A DNA stretch of 64,000 nucleotides from positions 5,119-69,118 of the forward strand of contig CBDVBZ010000004.1 of assembly GCA_965372355.1 (NCBI GenBank). The letters are read 5' to 3'. Shown one piece after another: positions 36,210 through 54,919 of the stretch; within the stretch, counting starts at the first letter, position 1, and every line of letters begins with the position of its first letter. Position numbers and translations under genes: made by a program. The notes beneath the pieces are model-generated. The model had not been told where the DNA came from. It worked only from the letters and a program-made list of their open reading frames with translations, and searched no databases. The stretch comes from an uncultured bacterium (GTDB lineage Bacteria; Krumholzibacteriota; Krumholzibacteriia; WVZY01).

Positions 36210-37803
36210 ACCCGCTCTTTCGCAGGACCGTCTTCATCCGTTCCTTCTCGTTCTCGTCGAAGACCCGCAAAACCTTCAGCAGTCCTGGATACACCACACA
36301 CCCGACAAGAAAGAGTACCACTCTTATGACAAGAGACAAGCCTCCGGATCCAGTATCGATCAACGCCATGACGACGAGGAGAGGAAGCATCGCCACACAC
36401 ACGCCAACCAGAATACTCGCAAGAACGCGGCCTACGAAGCGGAGGTCAATAGATAGCGCGGATATTCTGACGGCGAGCACGAGTTGCACGACGCATGCAG
36501 CCAGACTCGCCAACCCTATGCCGGTCAAGTCGAGCACCGGGCCAAGAACCGCGATGAGGGCAACATAGACGATTGCCCAGGCCAGGTCGACCCGAAGCGC
36601 GCCGCGAACATGGTCCGTCGCCTTCATCACCGTTGTCAAAGGCGCGGTCGCGGTCACGATCGGTATGCAAGCGGCCAGCATGATCACGAGCGGAATGGCA
36701 GGCGTATAACTGACGCTCGAAACGAGAATGATGAGATCGCGCCCAAATGCACCGATGCTAAACGCCACGAGCACGCCGACCGCCACGCTGAACTTGAGGA
36801 ACATTCGGGCAATCGAATCGGCATCTCTTGCTCTTCCTTCGACGTGAAGCCGGGTGACCTCCGGCTGGATCGCCGTGTTCGATGCGGCAAGCAGCCGGTT
36901 TGCCGATTGTGTGATACGGGCGCCGATGTGAAACAGGGCAATGAGTTCGAGAGGGAGAACCTGTGCCACAACGTACCGGTCGACATCGGTAAAGGCCACT
37001 GCCACCAGACTGATCCCCAGCGCACCGAGAAAGTAGTCGCGGTATGCGACACCGCTCGCCGCAGCACTCGCCGCGTCCCGGCCACCGTTCTCAATACCCG
37101 TCCGCGCCACCAACCACAGAAACACCGGGATGCCGATACCGGTTGAGACAAGATGCACAACACCGAGAATCCTGAAGATCAGCGCGAGGGACAGGTCATG
37201 TCGAGCGATATACATCCACACCAATGTGGCGAGCAATGACAATAGTTCGATAGGCACCTGAACGGTGATCCTGCGCAACCCCTGCAGCCCACCATAGACG
37301 ATCTGCTTGAGAACAATCCCTAATGTCGTGATCGCAAACCACAGGAGGAGTTCACCGCTGACGACCCCGGGATCCACGAAGGAGAGCAACCACGACCGCA
37401 TACCATACGCCACAGCACCGAGCAGCGCGAACAAAACGGTCGAGACGACCAGACACACAACGCTCAGACGCATCGCCCGCGCGCCGTCGTTGGCCGATTC
37501 GTGTACGGGAAGATAACGTACCAGCAGTTGCGGCAGACCGTTGGCGGCAAGCATCGCCAGCAGGAGCGAAAAACCCCTGAGAGAGGCAAACAAACCAAAC
37601 GTATCAAGAGCCAGAAAGTTGGACAGTATCTTTATCTGAACAAGAGCGAGGAGCGTACCGAGGATAGCCTGGATGACGAGCGCCATCGCATTCGGCAGAA
37701 ATCTGGACTCTCCGTGTGACGTGGGGATGCGATCTCTCATTCGCCTGGTTGTTTGATTGAACGCCTGGCAGCCGCAGCAAATCTCAAGGGGATCGAACGC
37801 CAA
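36178..37803 (-). CDS. MOP-superfamily oligosaccharide flippase (Wzx/MurJ-like polysaccharide biosynthesis protein)
   Basis: ~14 TM helices with conserved Arg/Asp in the first helices (LVRYLP...). No soluble domains. Located inside a glycan gene cluster. Confidence 0.7.
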   Translation of the reverse strand: MAFDPLEICCGCQAFNQTTRRMRDRIPTSHGESRFLPNAMALVIQAILGTLLALVQIKILSNFLALDTFGLFASLRGFSLLLAMLAANGLPQLLVRYLPVHESANDGARAMRLSVVCLVVSTVLFALLGAVAYGMRSWLLSFVDPGVVSGELLLWFAITTLGIVLKQIVYGGLQGLRRITVQVPIELLSLLATLVWMYIARHDLSLALIFRILGVVHLVSTGIGIPVFLWLVARTGIENGGRDAASAAASGVAYRDYFLGALGISLVAVAFTDVDRYVVAQVLPLELIALFHIGARITQSANRLLAASNTAIQPEVTRLHVEGRARDADSIARMFLKFSVAVGVLVAFSIGAFGRDLIILVSSVSYTPAIPLVIMLAACIPIVTATAPLTTVMKATDHVRGALRVDLAWAIVYVALIAVLGPVLDLTGIGLASLAACVVQLVLAVRISALSIDLRFVGRVLASILVGVCVAMLPLLVVMALIDTGSGGLSLVIRVVLFLVGCVVYPGLLKVLRVFDENEKERMKTVLRKSGFGGLARMLWR

Positions 37804-38708
37804 CGAAGGACCGGGTACTCGTACCGGGCACCACCGAGCGATTCCTTGTAATCGATCAGCGTGTCCTTGTTCAGGCTGCCTCCGAGGTTATAGCGTTTGT
37901 AACCATTGTCGCACGCATGCCGGATACACGAACTATAGAGGAGTGTGCTCGCCTGGACCGATCGGCTGTCTTGTGTCGTCACACCGTTCCACGCAATCAC
38001 GGTGTCCCCAAAGTAGAAATTCAAGTGACCGCCGAGCAATTCGTCACCCGCCCGCGCGAGAAACAACCGTACGTTGCCACCACCTCTTTGCACCAATTCG
38101 ACAAACAGCGACTCGGGGTACGCGCGCGGTAGATTCCACTCGTCCGCTCGCTCCCTGTATATCCGGTAATAGCCTCTCACCTCGTCTGCAGAGGCTGTTT
38201 GCGCGACCGTAATACCTTCGCGCTCCGCCTTCCTCGTTTGACGCCGTTTTGATTTCTCGAACTGCCCGCTCCACAGCTCGTCGAAGCCAGGTTCCAGATC
38301 GATAATGTGCGTCGTCACAGTGTCGCGCGACATCCGTGATTCCGGTAAGCGATTCAGAAAGTCAACCATTGCGACCTCGTGCACATCCATTCTCCGACGC
38401 GTGCGTGCAAATCGATCGGCCAGAAGTTTCTCGACCGGGCCTGCCTCGACGGTGACGGGTCCCCCGTAAGTACCAAAGGGCAGAGACAAGCACCTCCGCA
38501 AAATACCGCTTCCGGTCACGAAGTATGGTAGATATCCGAGGAGGTTCTCACCGCTTCGTGCGACGAGACACCTGAACTTGAACTGTGGAAAGCTGTTTGT
38601 GAGGCACTCGAGCCAGACGCGCGTGTGATAGAAGCTGGCCAGTGGAGACTGACATGCTATCTCATCGAGACCATCAGGGACTCGATCCACGGTTTCTACT
38701 CGCATCAC
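37737..38708 (-). CDS. FemAB-family (Acetyltransf_6/GNAT-fold) acyl/aminoacyl transferase
   Basis: Architecture and blocks such as LLGYLPYFVTGSGILRRCLSLPFGTYGGPV and LFLARAGDELLGGHLNFYFGDTVIAWNGVT...YKRYNLGGS match FemAB/BioF2-like transferases. Adjacent to a DegT aminotransferase. Confidence 0.65.
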   Translation of the reverse strand: MMRVETVDRVPDGLDEIACQSPLASFYHTRVWLECLTNSFPQFKFRCLVARSGENLLGYLPYFVTGSGILRRCLSLPFGTYGGPVTVEAGPVEKLLADRFARTRRRMDVHEVAMVDFLNRLPESRMSRDTVTTHIIDLEPGFDELWSGQFEKSKRRQTRKAEREGITVAQTASADEVRGYYRIYRERADEWNLPRAYPESLFVELVQRGGGNVRLFLARAGDELLGGHLNFYFGDTVIAWNGVTTQDSRSVQASTLLYSSCIRHACDNGYKRYNLGGSLNKDTLIDYKESLGGARYEYPVLRWRSIPLRFAAAARRSIKQPGE

Positions 38709-39913
38709 GACCTCGAATAATGGGCGGCGATACGGTTTATCGCCCGGACGACATCATCGACGTCGCTGTCACTCATCCCCGGGAATATGGGAAGAGAGAG
38801 ACACCTGGAGTAGTACGATTCGCAGTTCGGAACATCCGCGGGTCCGTCGAGATATCGCTGAAAGAAACCGTGCTTGTACACCGGGATGAAATGGACCGAA
38901 CACCCGATGTTCTCGGCGTTGAGCGCCTTCGCGAACCGGTCCCGGTCAATGGTAAGAGCGTCGACATTGAGAAGTATGACAAAGAGGTGCCACGTGTGGA
39001 CGTTGCCCTTTCCTACCCGAGGCAGCTCGACGCAGGCCGAACCGTCGAGTTGGCTCAGATATCCCTCGGCGACAACGCGTCTGTCCTCCAACAGTTCGTC
39101 GATCCGCATGAGCTGAGACAGTCCAAGCGAGGACAGAAGGTCGCTCATATTGAACTTGTAACCAAGGGCCTCCACGTTATAGAACCACGAACCACGGTCG
39201 GAATGACGGTTCCAGCTGTCCTCAGACATACCGTGATACGACAGGACCCGGAACTGCCGAGCCAGCTCGTCGTTGTTCGTCGACAGGCATCCTCCTTCGC
39301 CGCTGGTCAGGTTCTTTGTGGCGTAAAAACTAAAGGCGGTCGCATCGCCGAATCCCCCTATCGTCTTACCGCCCGCAGCCGCGCCGAAGCTGTGTGCCGC
39401 GTCTTCGACGACCCGTATCGAATTCGATTCGGCAAGGCTGATAATTTCGTCAATCTTGCACGCCTGTCCGCCGAAATGAACCGGCATGTATACCTTGGTT
39501 TGATTTGTCGTTCGCTTCGCGAACTCTTCGGGCGCGGGTCCAAACGTCTCCATCTCGATATCGGCAAGAACGGGTTTCGCGCCGGTGTGCATAATCGCAT
39601 GGACCGTCGAAGCGAACGTGAGCGCCGATGTCACAACCTCGTCTCCAGGGCCGACACCAAGCGCGGCCAAAGCAAGATACATGGCAGCGCTGCACGAGTT
39701 CACCGACACGACGTTGCGCACACCCAGGTACTTGCGAAGATCCCTCTCGAAAAGCTGGGTCTGGGGGCCCGTTGTCAACCAGCCCGACTGCAGCGTGTCC
39801 GTGACACGCTCGATATCGCTTGCGTTGATCGACGGCCGGAAGAAGGGCAGGAACTTCTCTCTTATCGGATCGCCGCCCTCAATTGCGGGTAGTTTGTCAC
39901 GTCTGTTTCCCAA
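38705..39913 (-). CDS. DegT/DnrJ/EryC1/StrS-family PLP-dependent sugar aminotransferase
   Basis: RVVEDAAHSFGAAAGGKTIGGFGDATAFSFYATKNLTSGEGG (Lys of ATKN is the PLP-binding residue). N-terminal ...IEGGDPIREKFLPF typical of PglE/ArnB/WecE-like enzymes. Confidence 0.9.
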   Translation of the reverse strand: MGNRRDKLPAIEGGDPIREKFLPFFRPSINASDIERVTDTLQSGWLTTGPQTQLFERDLRKYLGVRNVVSVNSCSAAMYLALAALGVGPGDEVVTSALTFASTVHAIMHTGAKPVLADIEMETFGPAPEEFAKRTTNQTKVYMPVHFGGQACKIDEIISLAESNSIRVVEDAAHSFGAAAGGKTIGGFGDATAFSFYATKNLTSGEGGCLSTNNDELARQFRVLSYHGMSEDSWNRHSDRGSWFYNVEALGYKFNMSDLLSSLGLSQLMRIDELLEDRRVVAEGYLSQLDGSACVELPRVGKGNVHTWHLFVILLNVDALTIDRDRFAKALNAENIGCSVHFIPVYKHGFFQRYLDGPADVPNCESYYSRCLSLPIFPGMSDSDVDDVVRAINRIAAHYSRS

Positions 39914-39946
39914 AGTATACGTCCTCTATCTCCAGCCAATAAATGT

Positions 39947-41365
39947 TCAAGAGCTCAACTTGGCGTCCGGGATTACAGAGTCCAGAAACGAACGGATCCC
40001 GGCCCCGTCACCGCGTTCTGCAAGCTCGCCGAGCCGGCCGAGCACTTGCTGCTGATCCCAGCCGTCCGGCAAGCCAGGACGGGCTGTCAGAATGTAGTTA
40101 TGGGCTGAGTCCTCGATCAGTTCTCCATCGGCAACAAGATTCTCGTGCAGCTTCTCGCCGGGTCTGAGCCCACTTTGCTTGATCACAATGTCATCTTCCG
40201 GCCTCAGCCCGTGCAGGGCGATGAGATCCTTGGCAATCTCCATGATTTTGATCGGAGAGCCCATTTGAAGGATAAAGATCTCGCCACCTTTTCCCATCAT
40301 CGACGCCTGGATGACGAGCATACAGGCCTCTTTGAGCGTCATAAAAAAGCGAGACGCTCGCGCGTCGCTGACCGTGACGGGCCCACCGGCCCGGATCTGG
40401 CGTATGAAAAGCGGCACGACGCTTCCTCGGCTTCCCAAAACATTGCCAAAACGGACCGTGATGAGACGCGGGTTGTCTGCTTCTTCTGCCCCCTCGATCA
40501 TCAGGTATTCGGCGATCCGTTTGGTTGCGCCCATGACACCCACCGGACGGACGGCCTTATCCGTGGAGATCAGAACCAGCCGCTCGGTTTCCGCGTCACG
40601 ACAGATCCGAATGATGTTTGCGGTGCCGAAAACGTTGTTCTTTACCGCCTCTTCGGGATGACTCTCCATATAATGGACATGCTTGTGGGCGGCGGTGTGA
40701 TATACAAACTCCGGATGAAGACGATCGAACACATGCGACAAACCGTTCGCATCGCGTATATCCGCAATGACGGGTGTGATCTTCAAATGAGGATGGGCCG
40801 TGCGAAGCTCCTCCTCGATCCGGAACACTTGGTTTTCCCCCCGGCCGAGCAGGTGGATCTCGCTCAAACCAAACCTGGCCAGTTGACGGCAAATCTCCCC
40901 CCCGATCGAGCCACCGGCCCCCGTGACCATCACGGAACGTCCCGAAAGCTCTCCACCGATCGCGTCTTCATCGAACTCGACGGTTTCCCGTCCGAGCAGG
41001 TCATCCGGGTGTACTTCCCGGATCTGCTCGAGATGAACCGGCCCCTGGATGATCTCGATGAGACCTGGGACGATCTTGAATGTCACACCCGCGTCGCGGC
41101 ACAGTGCCACTACCCGGCGTACAAACTCGCGAGAGCCCGAGGGGACGGCAATGATTGCCTCTTCGACGTGTTCACGCCGGGCAACGTGCGGCAACTCACC
41201 GCTTCCCCCAAAGACGCGGAAACCCTCTATCGTCTTTCCGTGCAGGGTTGTGTCGTCGTCCAGGTATCCGACGATATCCAGTCCGGCTTCCTTGTGCGAC
41301 TGGATTTCGCGGACCACCATGATGCCGGCCTCACCGGCACCAATTATGATAACGCGTTTTGACAT
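39947..41365 (-). CDS. nucleotide-sugar 4,6-dehydratase/epimerase, PglF/CapD/WbpM family (short form)
   Basis: Rossmann VMVTGAGGSIGGEICRQL, catalytic region STDKAVRPVGVMGATKRIAEYL, and C-terminal CapD block. An N-terminal CoA-binding-like domain (VIIIGAGEAG) precedes it, but no N-terminal TM helices. Confidence 0.85.
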   Translation of the reverse strand: MSKRVIIIGAGEAGIMVVREIQSHKEAGLDIVGYLDDDTTLHGKTIEGFRVFGGSGELPHVARREHVEEAIIAVPSGSREFVRRVVALCRDAGVTFKIVPGLIEIIQGPVHLEQIREVHPDDLLGRETVEFDEDAIGGELSGRSVMVTGAGGSIGGEICRQLARFGLSEIHLLGRGENQVFRIEEELRTAHPHLKITPVIADIRDANGLSHVFDRLHPEFVYHTAAHKHVHYMESHPEEAVKNNVFGTANIIRICRDAETERLVLISTDKAVRPVGVMGATKRIAEYLMIEGAEEADNPRLITVRFGNVLGSRGSVVPLFIRQIRAGGPVTVSDARASRFFMTLKEACMLVIQASMMGKGGEIFILQMGSPIKIMEIAKDLIALHGLRPEDDIVIKQSGLRPGEKLHENLVADGELIEDSAHNYILTARPGLPDGWDQQQVLGRLGELAERGDGAGIRSFLDSVIPDAKLSS

Positions 41366-41391
41366 GGCAATTCTGCCCGGACACTCCCGAT

Positions 41392-43785
41392 CTAGCGAAT
41401 CAACGAGATCGTTCTGACGACCGTGCCCGTGTCCGCCGATATTCGAACCAGATATACACCGCTTGCCGCGAAAAACCCGGATTCCGTCGTCAGATCCCAC
41501 ACCTCGCGTTCATTGGGACGGACGTTTTCCTCCGCGTGGACCAGCTCGCCTTCCAGTGTGTAGATCTCGATGTCGACCGGGCTGTTGTGATTCGCGATCT
41601 TCAACATGGTGTGGCCCCGGCGCGGGCGAATCGGGTTTGGGTATAGATAGACCTTTGAAAGATCCGTCGGGCCCGGTTCCAATGACGACAGATCCAGTAT
41701 AGATAAACCACCCGCGGTTGCAATGTAAAGCAGGTTCTGAGTCGGATGCAGCGTGAGGGCATGACAGAGCGCATCGGCCAGCGCCGACACAACCTTCTTC
41801 TGGTCAGGAAAGAAAAGACTCAGTTGCTCCCGCCACGCGGCCTGCGTAGTGAAGGACAAGATCTCGCGCTCATTGTCCCGGCTGATCCGGTTCAGACCCA
41901 AATCGGTGGCCACCCAAAGGTTTTCGTCGTGGTCGAGCGCAAGATCCATAACGGCGTTGCTGAGTAATTCGCCCCCCAACCCACGCTTCGCTTGAAACCT
42001 TCTGAACAAACCGTTCTCGTATCCATAAACCCCCGCTTTCGTACCCACCCACACAACCCCGTCGCTCCGCACGGTCACGGCGGACACGTCTCCGCCGTCG
42101 AAGTCATCGGCGACCGTACCCAAATGGGTCCACACATCGCCCGACAGATCGAAGAGGCTGGCTTTGTCGTACCCTCCGGTTCTCCACTCCCGGACGCCGT
42201 CCGATGCGTCCGCAACCCAGACCACCCCCCCGGGGCCAAAAGCGACGTCTGTGATATCGCCCACTTGCATGCCGAGGTTTGTGCTCGTGGGCGTGATGTG
42301 CCGCCATTCGTTTCCGTCTTCGCTCAAGATACTGATGCCGCGCCATTCGTCCGGGGCTGTTCCGCCGGGGTCGACAGCGTGCAGAAACCACCGGTTGCCC
42401 GCGGGGTCTTCCATTGCCCTATGGTGTCTCAACGATCCCAAACCGTCGCCGCCACCGGATCCGATGTCGTGATGTGTCCAGATATCGTTTTCGTACGAAA
42501 GATCCAAACCATCCTCCAGCTGGTCAACCTCTATCTCCGGCACTAACGGCCTCCACAACGAACAGAACCACTTCGATCCTTGCGAATCGGCAAGTAAGGC
42601 GAGGTTCGTGGACCGAGTACTCAGATTCGTGTCACCAACGGCGGGGTTGTAGTTGAACCACGTTCCACTCGGTGTCAGTTTGCCAACGCCAAAGCTCGCA
42701 CTCGACACCCACAACGACCCATCGATATCGAATGAGCTGCGACGCAGGTCTCTGCCCGTTGGCGCGTTGGCGCGCAGATCCCGCACGGTCGTTCCATCAA
42801 AAAGGAGAAGGTATCCACCGCGGCCGCGGCTCACCTGGCCGGTTCCCATATAGACCGTCCCATCCACCATGGGTTGAAGTCCGCGGGTCTCGGCCTGGCT
42901 GTTGAGCCCGTACTTGTGGAAGATGTGGACAAAGCTATGGGTGATCCACCCGCTGCCGTCGTTTTCGAACAACCGGGAATTCGACGCCGCCCAAAGCTTC
43001 TGTCCGCCAAACTTGATCGAGAAGATCGATTCTGTGCCGAGCCCCGCCGGGATCCACGTGCCGCCAGAATCATCGAGATACGCCAGACCAGCGCTGGTAC
43101 CTACCCACAGTGCGGTGTCGTCTCTGGCAAACACGTGTGCATTGAGACTCGGGAGACCGTTCGATACCTCCTCCGTGAAGCCAAGACGGTCGCGTCTGGC
43201 GACACCGTTGTCCGTCGCAAACCACAGGAAGTCACCGTCGACAAAGACGTCCGCGATCTCCTCGCTCGGCAGACTGTCCGTGGGAAACCGGGAACTCGGA
43301 AACCCGGCAACGATGAGACCGGCGCCGGCCTTGGTGCCGTAAACAACACTGTCTCCCCAGGCCGTCACCGTTGTTATGCGATCGTCGGCAATCCCATCCC
43401 CGGTGGCCTCGAATGTGCTCACATCGAACCCCCCGGGCACGAAGTCGAGCCGGGCAATCCCCAACCGGTCGGTTCCGACCCAAAGCGAGCCCTTGCTGTC
43501 GAACGCAAGACACGTGAGAAAGCTCGTTGGAAGACCGATCGTGTTGGTAAACTGTTCGAAGGTCGAGTCGTCGGGTTGGTATACGAGAAGTCCGCCGCTC
43601 GTCGCGCAGTAGAGTTCCCCGTCCCTCATGACGATCTCCGAAATGAGGTTTGGGTTGATATGATTGACCCACTCGCTCTGCTGGGCTTCGGCGTCCTCAC
43701 GCCAGATCGTAGCGATGGCAATGAGAACGAGGAGGTGTCTCGAGATTCGACGGATTGGGCTGATCATTGGTGGTATAGCGCGCAC
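41392..43785 (-). CDS. secreted multi-bladed beta-propeller protein (Reg_prop-like repeats) with T9SS-type C-terminal sorting domain
   Basis: Signal peptide MISPIRRISRHLLVLIAIATIWREDAEAQ. Many W/G-rich repeats (GSLWVGTDRLGIARLD, TALWVGTSAGLAYLD, GVVWVGTKAGVYGY, NLWVATDLGLNRI). C-terminal ~85 aa LYPNPIRP...IEIYTLEGELVH...EVWDLTTESGFFAASGVYLVRI matches the Por/T9SS CTD (or FlgD-Ig-like) pattern. Confidence 0.75.
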   Translation of the reverse strand: MRAIPPMISPIRRISRHLLVLIAIATIWREDAEAQQSEWVNHINPNLISEIVMRDGELYCATSGGLLVYQPDDSTFEQFTNTIGLPTSFLTCLAFDSKGSLWVGTDRLGIARLDFVPGGFDVSTFEATGDGIADDRITTVTAWGDSVVYGTKAGAGLIVAGFPSSRFPTDSLPSEEIADVFVDGDFLWFATDNGVARRDRLGFTEEVSNGLPSLNAHVFARDDTALWVGTSAGLAYLDDSGGTWIPAGLGTESIFSIKFGGQKLWAASNSRLFENDGSGWITHSFVHIFHKYGLNSQAETRGLQPMVDGTVYMGTGQVSRGRGGYLLLFDGTTVRDLRANAPTGRDLRRSSFDIDGSLWVSSASFGVGKLTPSGTWFNYNPAVGDTNLSTRSTNLALLADSQGSKWFCSLWRPLVPEIEVDQLEDGLDLSYENDIWTHHDIGSGGGDGLGSLRHHRAMEDPAGNRWFLHAVDPGGTAPDEWRGISILSEDGNEWRHITPTSTNLGMQVGDITDVAFGPGGVVWVADASDGVREWRTGGYDKASLFDLSGDVWTHLGTVADDFDGGDVSAVTVRSDGVVWVGTKAGVYGYENGLFRRFQAKRGLGGELLSNAVMDLALDHDENLWVATDLGLNRISRDNEREILSFTTQAAWREQLSLFFPDQKKVVSALADALCHALTLHPTQNLLYIATAGGLSILDLSSLEPGPTDLSKVYLYPNPIRPRRGHTMLKIANHNSPVDIEIYTLEGELVHAEENVRPNEREVWDLTTESGFFAASGVYLVRISADTGTVVRTISLIR

Positions 43786-43789: not shown

Positions 43790-45925
43790 CTAAAGAGGCT
43801 GCTTGAGTCTCAGGCTGCGTTTTCTTCCCATTAGAATATTGCCAAACGTCACCACAAGGATCTTCACATCCCTGCCCAACGACCAATTCCTCGTGTAGCT
43901 GGCATCCTGTGCCAGAAGATCTTCCAGGGAGATCTCGTCGTAACGCCCGGCTCTCCACAGGCCGGTCACTCCCGGGCGAACGTCAAAACGAAAGCCCGCC
44001 TTGGAATCGAGCATATCCGCATGCGACGACGGCATCGGATACGGACCGACGATGCTCAGCTTTCCTGTGACCACCAACCAAAAGAGGGGCGAATTGACGA
44101 TATCAGAGGGGCCGTTCGAACTCCTTGCATCGGCTACCGGCAACATGAAGGCCTCACCACACAACCCAAGCCTTGACTCTCGAGAGAAAGGTGTCCTCCC
44201 GCGAATCGATGCATACATAAAGTATAACACGCTAAACGGCAGCGACACTACCAGAAAAACCACACCGATGCCGATATCAAGCAGTCGTTTACCCAGTTTG
44301 TCGATCGCATAACGCGTATCCCTGCGGTAGGCGATCGCCGGACGACCGGCCAGATCGGTCACCTCAGCCTGATGGATAACGAGTCCCGAGAAGTCCGCCA
44401 CAACAGTGACATCCAGAACCCGTTTGCGCCCCATGACGATGATATCCGTCATCCGGTCCTCCGGCACGGCTCCGGGCAGCAATATGAGTTCCTGAACGCG
44501 AAACCTGTCAACAATCTCACCGATCTCAGAGACATCACCCAGGCTCCGTTGATGCTCACCGTCGGTCGCCACAATACCCACAATGTCCAGACCGCTGGAG
44601 GCGCCCCCGCGGAGCTCCTGCTCGAGCGCTCTTGCCTCTGAAAGGGCTCCTACGATGCAGACCCTCTTGAGATCGAGCTTCTGAGCGAGCAGCGCCCGGT
44701 GAAAACGCCGCAGGAGCGACCGTAGCAGCCAGTCGTAAAGTATGGCGAACGGAACCAGGAACGCGACAACCAACCTCGAGTAGCTCTGAATCTGGCTCAG
44801 ATAGGTACTGGCCATGAGCAACACGGAGGAAAAGATCACTGCCCGGCCGATGGCGAAAAGCTCGTCCACCCGCGATGTGTCACGTCGGATTCTATACAGA
44901 CCCAGAACCAAGAACGTGAAAACAAAAAGGATGTTCTGGTAAATCGTAAACTTGTCGTACGCCTGAAGCGGGAACAGCGGCTTCGCAAGAAAATCTCCGA
45001 GCGCCAGCCTCGAATAGTACGCCGATAGGAACGCGAGGTTGAACGCGACAAGGTCAGCCCCGAGAAAGAGCGTGACCTTCAACACCTCTCTGTATTTCTT
45101 GAGCGCATAGAAAACGGCGTTCCACTTCTCGTAATAACGGATCAAGCTGGCAAGATGCGCCACAAAGGGCCGGTTGAGCACCGACTTTGCACTCTCGCGG
45201 GCATGGTCATGGACCACCACGGCCTCCGGGTGATAATAGACGTCCCAGCGCTTCTGCTTCATCCGGTAGCACCAGTCGACATCCTCGAAATACAGAAAGA
45301 ACCGCTCGTCCATCATCCCGACGGACTCCACCGCTTCGCGCCGAACAAGCATGCACGCTCCCAGCACCCAGTCAACCTTTGCCGTCGTCTCGTGATTAAA
45401 ATCCAACATGAGATGTTTGGAGATCACCGAGGAGTTTCTGAAGATCCTTCCGAGAGGTGTTCTTCGGAGAAGGAGAACTCTCCAGTTATAAAACCTGCGG
45501 CAGGAATACTGGAGGTTGCCGTCGTAGAAAACCAGCTTAGGAGCGACGATACCCGCATCCGGAGTTTTCTCCATGAACTGATAGAGCGTTCTTATCGAAT
45601 GCTCCCGGATAACCGTGTCGGGATTCAGAATCAGCAAGTATCTTCCACGAGCCCGTTGTATACCCAGATTCACGGCGACCGAAAAGCCGGCGTTTCTCGT
45701 ACCGGCACTGAGATCGACCCATGGATAACAGTCTTGCACCAACTGAGAAGTGCCGTCGGAACTCGCGTTGTCCACGACAATGACTTCCGTCCGGTCGAAC
45801 ATGCTCTGCTTTTTGAGTGAATCAAGGCAGAGCCCGAGAACCGAGCGGCTGTTGTGCGTGACAATAACGACTGAAACGTCCACGGTGGAATCAGTCTCTC
45901 TGAAAGGCATCACGGAGTGATTCAA
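43790..45925 (-). CDS. bifunctional GT2 glycosyltransferase fused to WbaP-type polyprenyl-phosphate glycosylphosphotransferase (PGT) domain
   Basis: N-terminal GT2 (VSVVIVTHNSRSVLGLCLDSL...VIVVDNASSDGT...DxD-type region). Middle TM helices plus a CoA-binding-like region (RVCIVGALSEARALEQEL...IVGIVA). C-terminal Bac_transf-like block LSIVGPYP...RPGVTGLWRAGRYDEISLEDLLAQDASYTRNWSLGRDVKIL. The canonical KFRSM and SLDELPQL motifs appear absent or altered. Confidence 0.8.
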   Translation of the reverse strand: MNHSVMPFRETDSTVDVSVVIVTHNSRSVLGLCLDSLKKQSMFDRTEVIVVDNASSDGTSQLVQDCYPWVDLSAGTRNAGFSVAVNLGIQRARGRYLLILNPDTVIREHSIRTLYQFMEKTPDAGIVAPKLVFYDGNLQYSCRRFYNWRVLLLRRTPLGRIFRNSSVISKHLMLDFNHETTAKVDWVLGACMLVRREAVESVGMMDERFFLYFEDVDWCYRMKQKRWDVYYHPEAVVVHDHARESAKSVLNRPFVAHLASLIRYYEKWNAVFYALKKYREVLKVTLFLGADLVAFNLAFLSAYYSRLALGDFLAKPLFPLQAYDKFTIYQNILFVFTFLVLGLYRIRRDTSRVDELFAIGRAVIFSSVLLMASTYLSQIQSYSRLVVAFLVPFAILYDWLLRSLLRRFHRALLAQKLDLKRVCIVGALSEARALEQELRGGASSGLDIVGIVATDGEHQRSLGDVSEIGEIVDRFRVQELILLPGAVPEDRMTDIIVMGRKRVLDVTVVADFSGLVIHQAEVTDLAGRPAIAYRRDTRYAIDKLGKRLLDIGIGVVFLVVSLPFSVLYFMYASIRGRTPFSRESRLGLCGEAFMLPVADARSSNGPSDIVNSPLFWLVVTGKLSIVGPYPMPSSHADMLDSKAGFRFDVRPGVTGLWRAGRYDEISLEDLLAQDASYTRNWSLGRDVKILVVTFGNILMGRKRSLRLKQPL

Positions 45926-46616
45926 AACGAAGCTTCCACACCAGAAAAACCGCTTCCCATACGATTCGACGAGACATCTTCGAGGCCCCGCTCGTTCTGT
46001 CCACGAAGATGATCGGAATTTCCTTGATCCGGAACTTCTTTCTCCAGACGTAATGGTTCACTTCGATTTGAAAGGAATAGCCGTCACTCTTGATCTCATC
46101 GAGGGGGAGGCTCTCGAGAACCTCTCGACGAAAGCACTTGAATCCGCCGGTGGCGTCTTTTAGCGGCATACCGGTGACGAACCGCGTATAGATGTTGGCC
46201 CCCACGCTCAGAAAGAGCCTCGATAGAGGCCAGTTCATCACGGTGATGCCGTCGAGATACCTCGAGCCTAGCACGAGGTCCGCGTCCTTGATCGCCTCGA
46301 GAAATTCGGGCAACGCACCGGGATCGTGCGAGAAATCAGCATCCATCTCGAACACAAACTGCACAGAAGTGTTCTGCAGCGCCCATTTGAACCCCGCGAT
46401 ATAGGCGCTGCCCAGGCCCAGCTTACTCGGGCGTCGCAGCACGTGCAGTCGGTCGTTCGTCTTGGTCAACTCGTCGACGCGATCGCCGGTGCCATCCGGA
46501 GAGTTATCGTCGACAACGAGAACGCCGATGTCGAAATTGAGGCTGAAAATCTTCTCAATGAGCGCATCGATGTTTTCGCGCTCATTGTATGTCGGAACGA
46601 TTACGAGCGTTTCCAA
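45891..46616 (-). CDS. polyprenol-phosphate mannose/glycose synthase, Dpm1/Ppm1-like GT2 (soluble form)
   Basis: METLVIVPTYNERENI...VLVVDDNSPDGT...FEMDADFSHDP. Classic Dpm1-family sequence with no TM helices. Confidence 0.85.
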   Translation of the reverse strand: METLVIVPTYNERENIDALIEKIFSLNFDIGVLVVDDNSPDGTGDRVDELTKTNDRLHVLRRPSKLGLGSAYIAGFKWALQNTSVQFVFEMDADFSHDPGALPEFLEAIKDADLVLGSRYLDGITVMNWPLSRLFLSVGANIYTRFVTGMPLKDATGGFKCFRREVLESLPLDEIKSDGYSFQIEVNHYVWRKKFRIKEIPIIFVDRTSGASKMSRRIVWEAVFLVWKLRFESLRDAFQRD

Positions 46617-49278: not shown

Positions 49279-50418
49279 TTACCCACGCGCCGGTTTCTCG
49301 GCCAGGCCGCACAGGATCTCCCGACATCGCCCCCAGGAAAACCGGTGTTTCGCCTTCGCGATCCCGTCTTGCAACCGTTGCGCAGTACCATCGCGGAAGA
49401 ACTCGAGCATCGCCCCGCTCAGAGCATCCGGGTCACCCGGTGTCACGACGTAACCCGACACTCCATCCTCTACGACATCGGGTAATCCACCGACCCGCGT
49501 GACGACAACCGGCCTGTCGAATCCGAACGCTATCTGCACGATTCCGCTCTGCGTCGCGGAGAGATACGGCAGCACCACAACATCGGCGGCCACGAAGTAT
49601 TTCTCGACTTCCTCGTTCGGCACATACTGGTCCACCATCCGCACGCGGTCTCCGATCCCCAGACCCTCGATCTCGCTGACGTACGGCTGCCTGTCCTCGT
49701 AGAATTCGCCGACGATCATCAGCGTGGCCTCGATCTGCTGAATGGTTTTGGCGAAGGCCTGAATTAAAACCCGGAGACCTTTATAGGGGCGGATCAGTCC
49801 AAAAAAGAGAATGACCCGACCATCGACTCCAATCTCCCGGCGCGCCGTTTCCCTCGTATGCCGGCCTTTGTTGAATATGTCATAGATCGGATGTGGATGG
49901 ACATCCACGACGGCACCCTTTTTTATGCTTAGGAGGTTGCGACGATCCTCCTGCGATTGGACGAGGAAACGGCTGACCTGAGAGAACCCCAACCGGATCA
50001 GAACCGTGTCGATCAACGATTTCTCGTGGGGCAACACGTTGTGACACAAAAAGGCGACTCTCCGCTTCAGCGATCCGCCGAGAAGCAGAATGATCACGGC
50101 ATAGGCGACGGCAAAAAACGGATGCCACCACTGAAATACGATCAGATCGGGTCGATAAGATCTCATCGCTTGAGCGGCGCTCCAGAACGACAACGGATTC
50201 ATCGTGTCAATGAGACGCCTCGAGGGCACATCGAGCGGCTCACCACTCGTATCGAACTGCGTCTTGCCGGGGAATAGGAATGATGGATAGAGTCGTTTGA
50301 AATTCACCACCAGAACATCGTGGTGCTTACCAAACTCCTCTGCAAGCACGGATGTGAAGTGTGCGATCCCGCCGCGATACGGATAGACAGGTCCGACGAG
50401 ACAGACCTTTTTGATCAT
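49279..50418 (-). CDS. GT4 (group 1) glycosyltransferase
   Basis: MIKKVCLVGPVYPYRGGIAHF.... C-terminal EX7E-type region (LPYLSATQSGIVQIAFGFDRPVVVTRVGGLPDVV). Confidence 0.85.
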   Translation of the reverse strand: MIKKVCLVGPVYPYRGGIAHFTSVLAEEFGKHHDVLVVNFKRLYPSFLFPGKTQFDTSGEPLDVPSRRLIDTMNPLSFWSAAQAMRSYRPDLIVFQWWHPFFAVAYAVIILLLGGSLKRRVAFLCHNVLPHEKSLIDTVLIRLGFSQVSRFLVQSQEDRRNLLSIKKGAVVDVHPHPIYDIFNKGRHTRETARREIGVDGRVILFFGLIRPYKGLRVLIQAFAKTIQQIEATLMIVGEFYEDRQPYVSEIEGLGIGDRVRMVDQYVPNEEVEKYFVAADVVVLPYLSATQSGIVQIAFGFDRPVVVTRVGGLPDVVEDGVSGYVVTPGDPDALSGAMLEFFRDGTAQRLQDGIAKAKHRFSWGRCREILCGLAEKPARG

Positions 50419-51374
50419 GGCGCTTGCCCGCCTCCAAGGGGCAGCCCGGAGTCGTGCGTGAGGTGTTCGCGCAGGGTGTAGGTGGCTTCCTGGGCGCCGC
50501 GCGCCGTGATCAGCTCAGCGAGTAGCCCGATCGAGCCGATCTGAAGCGCCACGATGATCAGAACAAAACCCGCGAGCATGATCGGCCGAACCCTCAGGCC
50601 GACGCCACCAATGTACTGTATGAGAAAGATGATCTGAGGTATGGCTCCGATTACGAACAGAACGAATGCGATACGTCCAAAAAAATGAAGCGGTTTCAAC
50701 GCTCGTCGCGTGATGAACATCACTGTGACGAGGTCAAAGAACCCATTCAGAAAACGCTCGCCACCGTACTTGCTCCGACCGTACTTGCGTTTGAAATGCC
50801 GGACCTGGATCTCATCGACCTTGAACCCTTCCCAACCGGCCAGAACGGGTATAAAGCGATGCAGCTCTCCATACACCGCTATGGATCTAGCCACTTCCCC
50901 TCTGTAGGCCTTGAGTCCGCAGTTGAAATCGTGGAGGCGAAGACCGCTCATGACGGAAGTGACGAAATTGAAGAACTTGGACGGCAACCTCTTCGTCCAC
51001 GGATCTTGTCTATCCATTTTCCAACCCGACACCAGATCGGCGCCCTCGTGGAGCTTATTGATCAGCGCGGGTATCTCAGCGGGGTCGTCCTGAAGATCCG
51101 CATCCATCGTGATGATGATATCGCCCGTGGCCTCCTTGAATCCCACCGACAGCGCGGCCGATTTGCCGTGATTGCGTCTAAAGCTCAGGACTTTGACCTT
51201 GGGAGAACGCTCATAGAGATCGCGCAGAATGAGGAGTGACTTATCCACGCTGCCATCGTCGACAAAGATATACTCGTAGTCCACCCCGATGCCTGTCATC
51301 ACGGATTCGAGGCTTTCGAACAGCTCAGGGAGGCTTTCTTCCTCGTTGTAGAGCGGGATCACCACGGATATCAT
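50415..51374 (-). CDS. polyprenyl-phosphate glycosyltransferase, GtrB/ArnC-like GT2 with C-terminal TM anchors
   Basis: MISVVIPLYNEEESL...FVDDGSVDKS...ITMDADLQDDP, then two C-terminal TM helices (FVLFVIGAIPQIIFLIQYIGG, IMLAGFVLIIVALQIGSIGLLAELI). Confidence 0.85.
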   Translation of the reverse strand: MISVVIPLYNEEESLPELFESLESVMTGIGVDYEYIFVDDGSVDKSLLILRDLYERSPKVKVLSFRRNHGKSAALSVGFKEATGDIIITMDADLQDDPAEIPALINKLHEGADLVSGWKMDRQDPWTKRLPSKFFNFVTSVMSGLRLHDFNCGLKAYRGEVARSIAVYGELHRFIPVLAGWEGFKVDEIQVRHFKRKYGRSKYGGERFLNGFFDLVTVMFITRRALKPLHFFGRIAFVLFVIGAIPQIIFLIQYIGGVGLRVRPIMLAGFVLIIVALQIGSIGLLAELITARGAQEATYTLREHLTHDSGLPLGGGQAP

Positions 51375-51383
51375 TTCGACCTC

Positions 51384-52340
51384 CTAATCACCGATCAATC
51401 GCTTGAGTGTGGCCTGCAGCCACTCCGTCTCCATCGCGAGGCCTTCCTCCACCGTCGTCTTTGGCGCGTATCCAAGCTCCCCCCTGGCCAGACTGATGTC
51501 GGCATACGTGTGAGTGACATCCCCTTTTGCCCGGTCTTCGTATCGCACGTCCAGACCCGTGGGAAGTATTCCGGAGATGATGTCGAGCGCGGCATTCAAT
51601 GCGATCCGTGTGCCACCCCCCACATTGAAAACGCTCTCTTCCCCATCGTATTCCATGGCGAGCGTACAAGCCTCAACGATATCGGAAACGAACGTGAAAT
51701 CCCTCGTCTGAGTACCATTGCCAAAAACCGTAACCGGTTGTTCGTCCAGACCGGCTCGGATAAACCGATGAAACGCCATATCGGGTCGTTGTCTGGGCCC
51801 AAACACGGTGAAGAACCTCAGAGCCACCACCGGCAATCCGAAGTTGCTCCGGTACAGCAGGCAAAGCGCCTCGCCGGAGAGCTTGGTAACACCGTATGGG
51901 GAGACGGGGCACGTCGGATGGGTCTCGGACATGGGAAGCTCCTGGGTCTCCCCATAGACTGAGCTCGAGCTCGCATACACAAAACGTCTGACACCCTTGT
52001 TTCGCGCCGCCTCGCACAGTCGCTGAGTCGCCCGTATATTGGCGTCGACATAGCTGTCGAACAGGCTGTCCCAACTGTCCCTTACACCGGCCCACGCCGC
52101 GAGATGAAAGACGTAGTCGACTCCCTCGAGAATGCCGTCGAGATCGAGTTCGTTGAGATCGCCCTCGATCAGCGAGAAACCCTTCTTCTTCTCAAGACTG
52201 TTGAGATTCTCTCGTTTGAACCGGACATCGTAGTTCGCGCAGAGCGAATCGACACCGACGACGTCGAGGTCCTTTGCCAACAACGCCTCAGTGAGATGCG
52301 AGCCGATAAACCCTGCAGCACCGGTTACGAGCGTTTTCAT
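51384..52340 (-). CDS. NAD-dependent nucleotide-sugar epimerase/dehydratase (SDR family)
   Basis: MKTLVTGAAGFIGSHL Rossmann motif. Catalytic YASSSSVYG...Y/K context. 318 aa. Confidence 0.85.
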   Translation of the reverse strand: MKTLVTGAAGFIGSHLTEALLAKDLDVVGVDSLCANYDVRFKRENLNSLEKKKGFSLIEGDLNELDLDGILEGVDYVFHLAAWAGVRDSWDSLFDSYVDANIRATQRLCEAARNKGVRRFVYASSSSVYGETQELPMSETHPTCPVSPYGVTKLSGEALCLLYRSNFGLPVVALRFFTVFGPRQRPDMAFHRFIRAGLDEQPVTVFGNGTQTRDFTFVSDIVEACTLAMEYDGEESVFNVGGGTRIALNAALDIISGILPTGLDVRYEDRAKGDVTHTYADISLARGELGYAPKTTVEEGLAMETEWLQATLKRLIGD

Positions 52341-52390
52341 AGGCGTCCATATTCGCCGATTGCGCCGCCGCGACGCCGGCCTGACTCAGG

Positions 52391-54919
52391 TTACTGGTTC
52401 TCTGGAACCGAATCTTGCGTCTGTGTGCTGCGATCCAGGAGCTTCTGTCTGGATCTTATCATCGAATCGTCGTTGGGGTGACGCGCGATCCAGTTGTCGA
52501 CAAAGCGCAGCGCCCGGTCAACGCGATTGTACCGCATGCATATCGCTGTTGCGCTCACAACCGCGTCTCTGTGGTCGGGACAGTACTCTATCATCGCCTC
52601 TATCGTGGCAAGCACTCCTTGAAAATCCTCGATCCGCTCCTGCACACCCGCGAGACGATAGCGCACGTCGCAATCGTAGGGATCCTCTTCGATCTTGTCT
52701 CGGTAGTACTGTACTGCTCGGGTCGTGTCACCGCTCTCGAGGTAGTACCAGCCCAGCCACATCACAACGGGCGTCAAACCCGGCGAGATCTGCTCGGCCG
52801 CCTCCAGGTTCTTGATTGCCGCTTCGTAATCCTGTGCGCGGTATTGCATAAAACCGAGCTGGGTAAACGCTGCCGCATAGTTCTGAACCAGGCGATGCAC
52901 AAATGGCGGGTGATAAATCGATTCATCCCGCTGGTAGTCCTCGTCGAGCAGCCCCAGATAGCTGTAGTTCTGCCAGACGTTCTCTTCGAGTTTTGCAAGA
53001 TTGACCATGTTCTGCCCCTTGCGGGGAACAACACGGTAGGCCAACCCCTCCATCTCGAGGAACTCACGGTAGGGCTTGTAAATATTCGGTGGGATCGTGA
53101 CGGCAAAGTAGATCGGCTTCTTGTTGCTGTTGTATTTGAGGATGTGCTGCACGCCAATATCCCTGACGAGGATCCAGCTGCCGTCCTTGGTTTTGATCGG
53201 GCCCAAACGCGCGAGCTCGGCATCGGTCCAACGAATATTCACCTTTGGCTCATTGTCCCTCAGCTGCTTTATGTACCACGGCGTGTTTAGAAGGCTCAGG
53301 TTTACCACACGCACATCGGCGCGGTACTTCTCGACCTCCTGGATATACCAAAGTGGAAACGTGTCATTGTCACCGTTTGTAAAGATGATCCCATCTCGGT
53401 CCAGTCCCACCAGCATGTTCTTCGCGTACTCGCTGCATACGAAGTCGGCGGAGCGGTCGTGCTGAAAGAAGTGAGCCCGAAGCGTGAACGCTGGAAGAAC
53501 CAGAAATATAACGGCGGGCACGACAGCGGATGCCATACCGGTAACACCGACGCGAGATGCGAGACGCCGAATCTCGGACAGCAGGCTCGCCGCTCCGATC
53601 GCGATGAAAACGGCGAAATAGTAGAACGCGGGCAGATAGAAGTAGTCTCGCTCACGAACCTCCGCGTCGGAGAAGTTGAGATAAACGATCATGCCGAGGC
53701 TCGTCACCAGGAATGTCGCAAACAGTATGACAAATGTCTTCCGGTGCTTTGCATAGTGATCCACCATACCCCAGATACCCAGCGCCAGCGGGATCACCGA
53801 CCCGATATTCAGTCTACCAAGATAGACGGTCGCCATCTTGAACTGATCCTGGAGGTATTCGTTGAAATGCTGGAGCTGAAACCCAAAAAACGAGGATTTG
53901 CGCTCAAAGACGTTTGGCGGCGGGTACTGTTCGCGCCTGAGCACCGCATACAAACCGCGCCAGGTTTCCGGGTCCGCCTCGTCGATGGCGGGGTTGTGCC
54001 CCGAGCGAATCTTGAGATACAGGTGCACCGAAATCCCGAGAATGAAGAGCGCGCTGCAAATGATGGCGAATTTTGATTTGGACTGTGCGAAAAAGACCGC
54101 CAGCGCGACCACGAAGAGCGCGATGAGGGTAAGTGTGATCTGACCGTTCCTGTAGAGCGTCGCGTCGGCCACAAAGATCGCCACGCCCGCGCAGGCAAGC
54201 AAAAACTGCGTATTGCTGAACGACTTCTCCTTCGTCATCAGGATGACCAGGAAAACCCCCGAGAATGCCAGAATCGTTCCCAGGTGAAGACCGACGGTCA
54301 GCGCGAGCAGATAGAACAGAAGATAGACATATGAGACCGATTTCGGTCCCGTCGGGTTGTCCGCCCATTTGAGGGCCAGCCACGTCATGAAACCCATCAC
54401 GAACACGCTCATCGCGTACACTTCGGATTCCGTCGAATTCGCCCAGTACGTGTGACTGAACGTTAGGAAGAGCGCGCCCACCGTCGCCCCGGCCACCCTG
54501 ATCAAGGCGTCTGCCGCCGTGGCGCACCTCCCCATCATGTAGTCGAGGAAGCGAATCGCCAGCAGATACACCATCAGCACGCCGAGGCTGCCGGCAACCA
54601 CCGATATGAAGTTCACCTTACCGGCGATCGAAAACGGCAGTGGAAGCATCGTAAACACCCTCCCCACTAGGACATAGAGCGGCGTCCCGGGTGAGTGTGG
54701 CACACCGAGTGTGTACGCGCTGGCAATAAACTCGCCGGCATCCCAGAATGGCGCGCTGGGAGCCATGGTTCTCATATAGAGAAACAGGCTGAGCACGGCC
54801 GTAAACACAGCCCCGACAAGGAAATACACCCGAACAACGGGGTCCGCCGGCGCCGGCCTGGGTTGTGGCTCGGCCCTGGGGGCCGGCCGCGGTTTCGTTG
54901 ATTTCTGCTTTTTTGCCAT
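52391..54919 (-). CDS. GT-C-fold glycosyltransferase-like membrane protein (DUF2723/TMEM260-type) fused to C-terminal TPR repeats
   Basis: N-terminus ...SAPFWDAGEFIASAYTLGVPHSPGTPLY (first-loop acidic motif plus HPPG-like block) and ~11 TM helices. The C-terminal ~250 aa are TPR units (YEAAIKNLEAAEQISPGL..., RAVQYYRDKIEEDPYD...). Confidence 0.7.
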   Translation of the reverse strand: MAKKQKSTKPRPAPRAEPQPRPAPADPVVRVYFLVGAVFTAVLSLFLYMRTMAPSAPFWDAGEFIASAYTLGVPHSPGTPLYVLVGRVFTMLPLPFSIAGKVNFISVVAGSLGVLMVYLLAIRFLDYMMGRCATAADALIRVAGATVGALFLTFSHTYWANSTESEVYAMSVFVMGFMTWLALKWADNPTGPKSVSYVYLLFYLLALTVGLHLGTILAFSGVFLVILMTKEKSFSNTQFLLACAGVAIFVADATLYRNGQITLTLIALFVVALAVFFAQSKSKFAIICSALFILGISVHLYLKIRSGHNPAIDEADPETWRGLYAVLRREQYPPPNVFERKSSFFGFQLQHFNEYLQDQFKMATVYLGRLNIGSVIPLALGIWGMVDHYAKHRKTFVILFATFLVTSLGMIVYLNFSDAEVRERDYFYLPAFYYFAVFIAIGAASLLSEIRRLASRVGVTGMASAVVPAVIFLVLPAFTLRAHFFQHDRSADFVCSEYAKNMLVGLDRDGIIFTNGDNDTFPLWYIQEVEKYRADVRVVNLSLLNTPWYIKQLRDNEPKVNIRWTDAELARLGPIKTKDGSWILVRDIGVQHILKYNSNKKPIYFAVTIPPNIYKPYREFLEMEGLAYRVVPRKGQNMVNLAKLEENVWQNYSYLGLLDEDYQRDESIYHPPFVHRLVQNYAAAFTQLGFMQYRAQDYEAAIKNLEAAEQISPGLTPVVMWLGWYYLESGDTTRAVQYYRDKIEEDPYDCDVRYRLAGVQERIEDFQGVLATIEAMIEYCPDHRDAVVSATAICMRYNRVDRALRFVDNWIARHPNDDSMIRSRQKLLDRSTQTQDSVPENQ

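Follow-up and report, generated by a model that had tools for sequence, protein, structure and literature searches.

The window analyzed here, i.e. the whole 64-kb stretch of DNA, carries a long gene cluster on its minus strand, and among the members of that cluster is a single open reading frame (ORF) of 711 amino acids (aa), read from a TTG start codon, in which a family 2 glycosyltransferase (GT2) is fused to a membrane module of the kind found in large monotopic phosphoglycosyltransferases (monoPGTs). The gene order of the cluster begins with an LPG_synthase_TM protein, a TMEM260-like glycosyltransferase of the GT-C type, a short-chain dehydrogenase/reductase (SDR) epimerase, an ArnC-like GT2, a GT4 and a YfhO-like protein, and it continues with a 241-aa GT2, the fusion, a propeller protein, a dehydratase, an aminotransferase, a FemAB acyltransferase and a Wzx-like flippase (Table 1). 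The same order surrounds relatives of the fusion at 63% and 59% identity. A protein in NCBI/ENA (P0001) is identical to the fusion of the window except that it is 706 aa long and starts five codons later, and the cluster to which P0001 belongs is labelled Candidatus Krumholzibacteria.

An earlier note on this DNA had described the fusion as a single ORF made of a GT2 domain, four or five transmembrane (TM) helices, a Rossmann segment and a Bac_transf domain, and Pfam, hydropathy and an AlphaFold2 (AF2) model all bear this architecture out, with the count of TM helices settling at four. The Pfam family Glycos_transf_2 (PF00535) matches aa 18-199 (E 6e-25, 88.6 bits against a cutoff of 23.3) and CoA_binding_3 (PF13727), which marks the domain of unknown function (DUF) of large PGTs, matches aa 341-502. 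Positions 2-307 of TIGR03025 correspond to aa 290-594. By hydropathy the TM segments lie at aa 281-302, 326-344, 353-374 and 383-405, followed by a re-entrant helix at aa 544-574, and the AF2 model (mean predicted local distance difference test score 78.5) agrees, with helices at aa 279-308, 320-341, 352-377 and 384-414 and a further helix at aa 538-574 that covers the re-entrant segment. When this model is ranked by Foldseek against the PDB, Salmonella enterica WbaP (8t53) comes first and GT-A glycosyltransferases come next. A bundle of four TM helices and a PF13727 DUF N-terminal to the catalytic domain, the features by which large PGTs are recognized, are thus both found in the fusion, and its scores stay below the curated NCBIfam cutoffs for large PGTs (TIGR03025, 181.2 versus 295.55; TIGR03023, 145.1 versus 410.75; TIGR03022, 107.3 versus 403).

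Table 1. Features of the fusion ORF and of its neighbors in the window, with conservation in the family alignment
Feature	Positions	Strand	Basis	Mean pairwise identity	Invariant columns
Whole fusion ORF: GT2, four TM helices, DUF (PF13727), degenerate monotopic PGT domain; 711 aa	43790..45925	-	Pfam, NCBIfam, phmmer, P0001		
GT2 (GT-A fold) domain, aa 14-255	45161..45886	-	PF00535, Foldseek, invariant signature residues	68%	32%
Juxtamembrane helices, aa 256-280	45086..45160	-	AF2 helices 254-268 and 270-277; invariant columns	73%	
Four TM helices, aa 281-405, equivalent to the four-helix bundle of large PGTs	44711..45085	-	hydropathy, AF2, WbaP alignment	66%	20%
DUF, CoA_binding_3-like Rossmann domain, aa 406-540	44306..44710	-	PF13727, E 4e-8; TIGR03025	58%	12%
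Re-entrant membrane helix, aa 541-575; head K546-R547-x-x-D550, S561-x-P563	44201..44305	-	alignment, hydropathy, AF2	52%	11%
Catalytic-core remnant, aa 576-612; beta-hairpin 580-598 kept	44090..44200	-	register alignments, family consensus, AF2	52%	3%
Kept C-terminal half of the PGT fold, aa 613-702	43820..44089	-	PF02397, WbaP and PglC structures, intact-fusion profile	58%	23%
Soluble 241-aa GT2, polyprenyl-phosphate sugar synthase-like (PpgS/AglJ/DPM-like), upstream; ORF overlaps fusion start	45891..46616	-			
YfhO-like polytopic membrane protein, putative GT-C, 908 aa	46601..49327	-	weak C-terminal PF09586 match below cutoff; many TM segments		
PorZ-like secreted two-propeller protein with type IX secretion system (T9SS) C-terminal domain, 797 aa, downstream	41392..43785	-	Reg_prop and Por_Secre_tail		
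Amino-sugar and flippase block: PseB/PglF-like 4,6-dehydratase, PseC/ArnB-like aminotransferase, FemAB-family acyltransferase, Wzx-like flippase	36178..41500	-			
Upstream block: GT4, ArnC-like GT2, SDR epimerase/dehydratase, TMEM260-like GT-C with tetratricopeptide repeats, flippase-like LPG_synthase_TM protein	49279..56313	-			

Does the PGT half of this protein retain what catalysis requires? All monoPGTs have a re-entrant membrane helix, an Asp-Glu dyad and Mg (PMC10519829); in PglC the dyad is Asp93-Glu94, at the membrane interface (PMC10519829, PMC10186338), and Arg88 and Arg145 mediate the binding of undecaprenyl phosphate (PMC10519829). In the fusion, the best stretch of the Bac_transf match (PF02397, E 1.4e-20, 74 bits against a cutoff of 27) is aa 613-698, which corresponds to profile positions 92-178 of 179 only. 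A phmmer comparison with WbaP (8t53) pairs aa 268-593 with chain positions 50-379 and aa 612-695 with positions 436-519, leaving 18 residues of the fusion opposite 56 of WbaP; the lost part, approximately 329-384 in native WbaP numbering, takes in the residues that lead up to the dyad as well as the helix-turn-helix (337-369; PMC10942596). A profile that we built from eight GT2-PGT fusions with a textbook core gives the same register, with aa 545-595 at positions 5-56 and aa 613-702 at positions 103-192 (60 bits), and the 46 positions in between (57-102, running from KFRxM through D-E-L) face only the 17 residues of aa 596-612. In other words, 29 (profile) to 38 (phmmer) residues are absent from the PGT domain. 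KFRxM, the mobile helix-turn-helix and the PRxT..G..LR block are gone; M594-L595-P596-V597-A598 occupies the position of KFRxM, Tyr629 stands in for the GPRP Arg, and a count back from Pro613, which is aligned, puts the dyad at Val610-Asn611. By the intact-fusion profile, the deletion also takes in the segment to which an equivalent of PglC Arg88 would belong, and counting back from P613 maps that residue to Gly605 on the assumption that Arg88 stands five residues before Asp93. What is left comprises a re-entrant helix with a basic and acidic head and a Ser-Pro break, a beta-hairpin that the AF2 model builds from strands 580-586 and 592-598 and follows directly with helix 612-620, and a C-terminal half with PLFW, GKLSIVGPYP, RPGVTGLWR and D674..Y677..W681..D686-x-K688, which includes the PG.TG.W loop and the terminal helices.

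Since KFRxM, the helix-turn-helix, the PRxT..G..LR block, the dyad and the GPRP Arg are all lost, the PGT-derived module should be incapable of canonical phosphosugar transfer to undecaprenyl phosphate. We do not file the fusion as a catalytic monoPGT because both the dyad and the core between hairpin and dyad are missing, nor is it a bifunctional PGT (Bi-PGT), as the architecture of such a fusion is there but its PGT half has no catalytic core; it does qualify as a GT2, given a PF00535 score above cutoff, GT-A neighbors in Foldseek and invariant D52, D57, D103, E214, D215 and D217. The strings that the earlier note had picked out by eye are all present (AFMLPVADAR, SDIVNSPLFW, RPGVTGLWRA and RNWSLGRDVKIL), and the loss that it reported of FTMYKFRSM, of the SLDELPQL region and of the PRVTRVGR block holds up in the phmmer and profile alignments, which do not bring the canonical residues into register. 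Its description of the PGT as full-length does not hold, in that the domain is internally truncated and is matched by PF02397 only from profile position 92. Two ways in which an active site might have been overlooked were also considered. A shifted alignment that hides the catalytic residues is ruled out by the Pfam coordinates, the comparison with WbaP and the intact-fusion profile together. A substitute dyad in the TM2-TM3 loop, where the nearly invariant V-D354-E355-L-F resembles L-D-E-L-P, was rejected as well: this stretch aligns to an ordinary loop of WbaP, and a direct reading of the sequences shows no conservation of it across the wider group, in intact and core-deleted proteins alike.

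The short core is a property of the family. More than 120 relatives of approximately 700 aa share 54-100% identity with the fusion, and when 29 of these (55-86% identity, approximately 700 aa) are aligned, every one has the same short core region, with the consensus RLGLxGxPxxxPxAGxGxSxGPSDxVNLPLFWLVVxGKMSxVGPYP and V-N where the dyad would be. Conservation is highest in the GT2 domain, where D52-N53-A54-S55..D57, N101-P102-D103 and E214-D215-V216-D217-W218 are invariant, and it is lowest in the former active-site stretch (Table 1). The juxtamembrane helices also contribute invariant residues, including H257, S260, R263-Y264-Y265 and K267-W268, as does the re-entrant helix with K546, R547, D550 and S561. 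In a working PGT, the surroundings of the dyad are the most conserved region, and the pattern of conservation in the fusion is therefore inverted relative to that of a working PGT. Both the GT2 and the PGT-derived scaffold are under purifying selection, and the loss of the core is, by these alignments, fixed and ancient.

A profile search of a library of representatives at 50% identity returned many distant proteins of approximately 700 aa with the same end-to-end architecture, and we examined 51 full-length representatives, namely the window protein and 50 from the library. Eight have a textbook core, with KFRxM and D-E-(L/I)-P (e.g. P0174, P0268 and P0199); four keep the length but have a mutated dyad (D-L in P0124, E-K in P0147 and P0151, Q-H in P0149); and 39 are core-deleted. 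The distance from the helix head to GxMSLVG is 98-110 residues in the intact fusions; measured to GxxSxVG, it comes to 47-90 residues in the 32 core-deleted representatives in which it could be measured and 75 in the family of the window protein. The two groups differ sharply in the PGT half, with D-E in all eight intact fusions and absent from the core-deleted ones, and hardly at all in the GT2, where D52, N53, D103, E214, D215, D217 and H239 are conserved at approximately 100% in the 39 and the eight alike. Much of the fold around the deletion persists in the core-deleted set: K546 in 35 of 39, R547 in 37 and D550 in 36 at the helix head, and G621 and G627 in all 39 and D686 in 38 among the fold markers, with P651, G652 and Y677 persisting too. 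Within the remnant, no acidic position is conserved across the core-deleted wider clade. Because the length of the remnant varies so widely, and because the C-terminal half erodes in some relatives, catalysis by the PGT-derived domain should not be the function under selection. An intact GT2-large-PGT fusion is probably the ancestral state, and in a rough neighbor-joining tree of the N-terminal 540 residues the core-deleted proteins fall into two or more clades, with intact fusions next to them. The tree suggests that the PGT core was lost more than once, a tentative conclusion because it carries no support values.

Erosion has gone further in some relatives. In a syntenic subclade of approximately 700-aa proteins, mostly labelled Krumholzibacteria (L051, L053, L057, L069, L073 and L074, with the match at approximately 10001-12100), the C-terminal half is reduced to little beyond PGLTGPW and the PGT profile is blind to it, which looks like a further stage of decay. 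The group as a whole is large. Relatives occur in at least 581 species-representative genomes, as found with scan patterns that lie within the GT2 domain (a PGT remnant is detectable in 43 of 82 loci), and the labels of these genomes include Krumholzibacteriia/-ota, Eisenbacteria/Eiseniibacteriota, Latescibacterota, some Fibrobacteraceae and others. The earlier note had called GT2-PGT fusions uncommon; such a spread over several phyla speaks otherwise. O'Toole et al. 2021 (PNAS) reportedly describe GT fusions as a common class of monoPGTs. Bifunctional monoPGTs are, moreover, a recognized class (PMC10942596).

Among characterized systems, the closest known protein is WbaP and the closest known class is that of the bifunctional monoPGTs. 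WbaP is the best match in the PDB by both sequence and structure, it has the same order of modules as the fusion after the GT2, and it shares the helix-head K-R-x-x-D, the G..S.VG, the PG.TG.W and the D..Y...W...D motifs; it differs in lacking the N-terminal GT2 and in keeping the 56 residues, the dyad and the GPRP Arg that the fusion has lost. The DUF of WbaP mediates dimerization through a beta-hairpin swap and binds UMP, UDP and UTP, and UMP inhibits the enzyme (PMC10942596). The intact GT2-large-PGT fusions (P0174, P0268, P0199, P0131 and L030) share the end-to-end architecture, and their GT2, four-helix bundle and DUF can be aligned with those of the window protein, but they keep F-x-x-Y-K-F-R-S/T-M, D-P-R-V-T-R-x-G-x-F-L-R and L-D-E-L/I-P-Q, none of which the window protein has. 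One of these, L030 (10001-12193, in a Desulfatiglandales metagenome-assembled genome, contig CAXXLN010000004.1), is the only fetched locus whose fusion has an intact core, with KFRxM, D-E-x-P and full profile coverage. Its surroundings have no gene in common with the conserved neighborhood, and its fusion is possibly a picture of the ancestral bifunctional enzyme.

For the GT2 half, the nearest comparison is with WbbL-type rhamnosyltransferases (TIGR01556), whose profile positions 16-260 of 281 align with aa 36-299 (E 1.6e-21), at a score of 76.7 against a cutoff of 200.55 that makes this a resemblance and not a membership. WbbL-type and related GT-A enzymes (WrtF, 9omh; a Leptospira enzyme, 6p61) have the GT-A fold and the NPD and ED.D motifs in common with the GT2 of the fusion; the WbbL enzymes, which act on polyprenyl-PP-GlcNAc, are not fused to a PGT-derived membrane module. 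For such a module in the service of another enzyme, the precedent comes from PglF/CapD-type dehydratases: PglF-like dehydratases carry the four-helix and DUF module without PGT activity (PMC10942596). That module carries a dehydratase and no PGT remnant, whereas the module of the fusion carries a GT2 and keeps the re-entrant helix and half of the PGT fold.

The fusion belongs, as a fixed component, to an envelope-glycan cluster that is conserved in Krumholzibacteriota, Eisenbacteria and relatives and that we followed through the window and 82 fetched related loci (1.39 Mb in total). Partners were tallied in the 37 loci with full flanks, 4 of them close and 33 distant. The 241-aa GT2, in which hydropathy finds no hydrophobic segment, is immediately upstream in all 4 close and 32 of the 33 distant loci; the YfhO-like protein is present in 4 of 4 and 23 of 33; and the propeller gene, which starts after a 4-nt gap downstream of the fusion, is adjacent in 4 of 4 and 13 of 33. 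Among the distant loci, the ArnC-like GT2 occurs in 32, the epimerase in 25, the FemAB-like acyltransferase in 23, the TMEM260-like protein in 21 and the PglF-like dehydratase in 18. This last gene, two genes downstream of the fusion (39947-41500, minus strand), encodes a DUF of the large-PGT type (CoA_binding_3; TIGR03025 positions 123-240) and no hydrophobic segment, in contrast to Campylobacter jejuni PglF with its four TM helices. Its annotated GTG start overlaps the upstream gene by approximately 100 nt and its homologues are 481-487 aa long; to judge from these lengths, the true start probably lies further downstream.

Where, then, is the enzyme that primes the glycan? A search of the 64-kb window and, in the 82 related loci, of 10 kb on either side found no canonical PGT; the only matches to the PGT profile are the fusions themselves, and no second monoPGT was found in the window or the related loci. 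The one PF00953 gene in the window is mraY of the dcw cluster. A phmmer search with MraY, a weak detector of WecA and hence soft evidence, gave no match in the 37 full-flank loci. The statement of the earlier note that no other priming PGT is present in the locus is thus good, apart from MraY, for the whole window and for the related loci too.

We consider it reasonably probable that the fusion is an active GT2 anchored by a pseudo-PGT scaffold, as judged from the sequence comparisons above. It would descend from a bifunctional GT2-large monotopic PGT enzyme that carried out the first two steps of glycan assembly; priming would then have passed to another enzyme, and the PGT site would have decayed while the scaffold stayed. 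In the present-day protein, catalysis is probably the task of the GT2, which would be held on the cytoplasmic face of the membrane, and the dead module (four-helix bundle, DUF, re-entrant helix and C-terminal PGT half) is probably kept by selection as a non-catalytic scaffold. This scaffold would anchor the GT2, probably dimerize it as the DUF does in WbaP, and place it within reach of an acceptor that is linked to polyprenyl (di)phosphate and supplied by a different, priming enzyme; we infer the lipid-linked nature of that acceptor. Two suggestions of the earlier note, that the PGT domain may be inactive and that the GT2 may be the working part on a PGT-derived membrane scaffold, are supported by the deletion of the core in register, by the low conservation of the remnant and by the invariant signature residues of the GT2.

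Several observations weigh against this reading. Asp608 in the remnant, nearly invariant in the close family, and the charged residues R646, R658, D674, D686 and K688 of the C-terminal half, invariant there, look more conserved than a pure anchor would require, as if a role in ligand binding had been kept. The cluster also has nucleotide-amino-sugar enzymes and a Wzx-like flippase, for which a priming enzyme is normally required, and finding no PGT near it leaves room for priming by the fusion through some other chemistry. In addition, all subfamily matches of the GT2 domain fall below their curated cutoffs.

The proposal of an active GT2 on a dead scaffold can be extended, and the alternatives to it differ in how well they fit these data. 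The most far-reaching extension sees a multi-phylum lineage of monoPGT pseudoenzymes in which catalysis was lost repeatedly and the dead fold became a reader or dock, passing polyprenyl-(di)phosphate-linked intermediates to the GT2 and recruiting the synthase and the DUF-bearing dehydratase, so as to form a membrane hub for a conserved surface glycan that might serve as an anchor for T9SS cargo. We offer this larger picture tentatively, as possible rather than probable. A role in cargo anchoring is conceivable because the PorZ-like gene is adjacent and FemAB-type aminoacyl-sugar enzymes are present. The propeller protein reaches 102.7 bits against NF052228 (T9SS_PorZ), below the cutoff of 260 and mostly over the C-terminal domain, and it matches the PorZ structure 5m11 with E 1.3e-9 (aa 567-782 to 533-741). 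In Porphyromonas gingivalis, PorZ is part of a complex that attaches T9SS cargo to A-LPS (anionic lipopolysaccharide), and T9SS cargo has a seryl or glycyl linking sugar for which VimA has been proposed as the amino-acid transferase (PMC7468200). The FemAB-type enzyme of our cluster (TIGR03019, E 3e-24), encoded consecutively with the dehydratase and the aminotransferase at 37737-41500 on the minus strand, suggests an aminoacylated amino sugar that recalls this linking sugar, and the cluster may build a cargo-anchoring glycan.

The dead module might instead serve mainly as a membrane receptor that docks the soluble 241-aa DPM1/PpgS-like synthase, the TM-less PglF-like dehydratase, or both, and presents polyprenyl phosphate. 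An analogy would be the anchoring of DPM1 by DPM3, or of Ppm1 by Ppm2. The synthase lies immediately upstream in 36 of the 37 full-flank loci and has no hydrophobic segment, the dehydratase has the large-PGT-type DUF and no TM segment, hairpin swapping between DUFs is known from WbaP, and the re-entrant-helix domain descends from an enzyme that binds polyprenyl phosphate. As the main role we nonetheless judge docking unlikely: it leaves unexplained that conservation peaks in the fusion's own GT2, and the region equivalent to the undecaprenyl phosphate-binding Arg88 is deleted. Such docking would be compatible with a scaffold for an active GT2 and would not exclude it.

That the PGT-like module still primes, through a non-canonical site built on Asp608 or on residues of the GT2 or DUF, with the fusion catalyzing both the first and the second glycan step, we regard as very improbable. 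It would account for the fusion being the only PGT-like gene, in the window and the 82 loci, in a cluster with Wzx, GT4s and amino-sugar enzymes, for the near-invariance of Asp608 in the close family, and for the retention of the PG-TG-W loop and the helix head. Yet the missing residues include every one known to contact phosphate or Mg, the position of Asp608 is Asp in only 5 of the 39 core-deleted sequences, conservation within the protein is lowest in the remnant, and there are syntenic relatives whose C-terminal half has decayed too. The idea is weak because the remnant varies in length and sequence and Asp608 is not conserved outside the close family, and the earlier note's suggestion of a different mechanism or substrate is for these reasons disfavored. 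There is similarly little to recommend a sensor, in which the DUF and the half-PGT would respond to uridine nucleotides or UDP-sugars and control the GT2 allosterically, with no scaffolding beyond anchoring. The binding of uridine nucleotides by the WbaP DUF, the inhibition by UMP and the retention of the DUF and the PG-TG-W loop are consistent with such a sensor, but the DUF is among the less conserved regions and no nucleotide-binding residues could be mapped. Finally, the chance that the divergent stretch is an artefact (a frameshift, a sequencing error, which the earlier note had raised, or a misassembly) or a recent pseudogenization in one genome is practically nil, considering that the ORF is uninterrupted, that the same sequence occurs in independent assemblies, that all 29 aligned relatives and dozens of more distant ones share the deletion, and that synteny extends across phyla.

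A probably inactive monoPGT fold in a large group of proteins has several implications. The core is highly conserved throughout the monoPGT superfamily (PMC11626204), and the fold is taken as catalytic and used to assign protein and pathway (PMC10519829, PMC11626204). We found no report of inactive monoPGT domains in the literature searched, and neither "inactive" nor "dyad" appears in the text of PMC11626204. Automated annotation names relatives of the fusion sugar transferases or PGTs, and a silent error in pathway reconstruction may follow: what looks like the priming enzyme of the cluster in Krumholzibacteriota, Eisenbacteria and their relatives is probably not one. For the accessory parts of large PGTs, the group also amounts to a natural experiment, in that the four-helix bundle, the DUF and the re-entrant helix appear to be selected in the absence of PGT catalysis. 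Taken in order, the intact, dyad-mutated, core-deleted and further eroded forms would make up a series that leads from a bifunctional enzyme to an enzyme joined to a pseudoenzyme.

A few observations on the neighborhood remain. P0138 is a 1387-aa ORF that joins the fusion to the propeller protein with the junction RRRIVPLSIIPLLFLFSQKSEA, and we had considered it as a Rosetta-stone fusion; this was downgraded, as the junction resembles the signal peptide of the propeller protein and read-through or a gene-calling artefact is likely. Long stop-to-stop ORFs that join the two proteins are found in L050, L056, L071 and L081 as well. The block at 49279-56313, whose ArnC-like GT2 (E 4e-54) has two C-terminal TM segments, resembles an Arn-type periplasmic modification module, and if the YfhO-like protein and the soluble 241-aa synthase are counted, the cluster has two pairs of a polyprenyl-phosphate-sugar enzyme and a GT-C. 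At its other end, the glycan cluster abuts a dcw cluster (17026-33774, minus strand) in which Pfam identifies mraW, ftsI with a PASTA domain, murE, murF, mraY, ftsW and murG; beyond these, the ORFs at 17026-22653 would be expected to run from murC to ftsZ. Between the Wzx-like gene and mraW lie two long overlapping ORFs on opposite strands, 34593-36329 (plus) and 34653-36209 (minus), neither of which has a Pfam match and the second of which has no NCBIfam match. The 518-aa product of the minus-strand ORF has homologues at the same position in all 4 close loci and may represent a divergent polymerase or ligase of the Wzy type.

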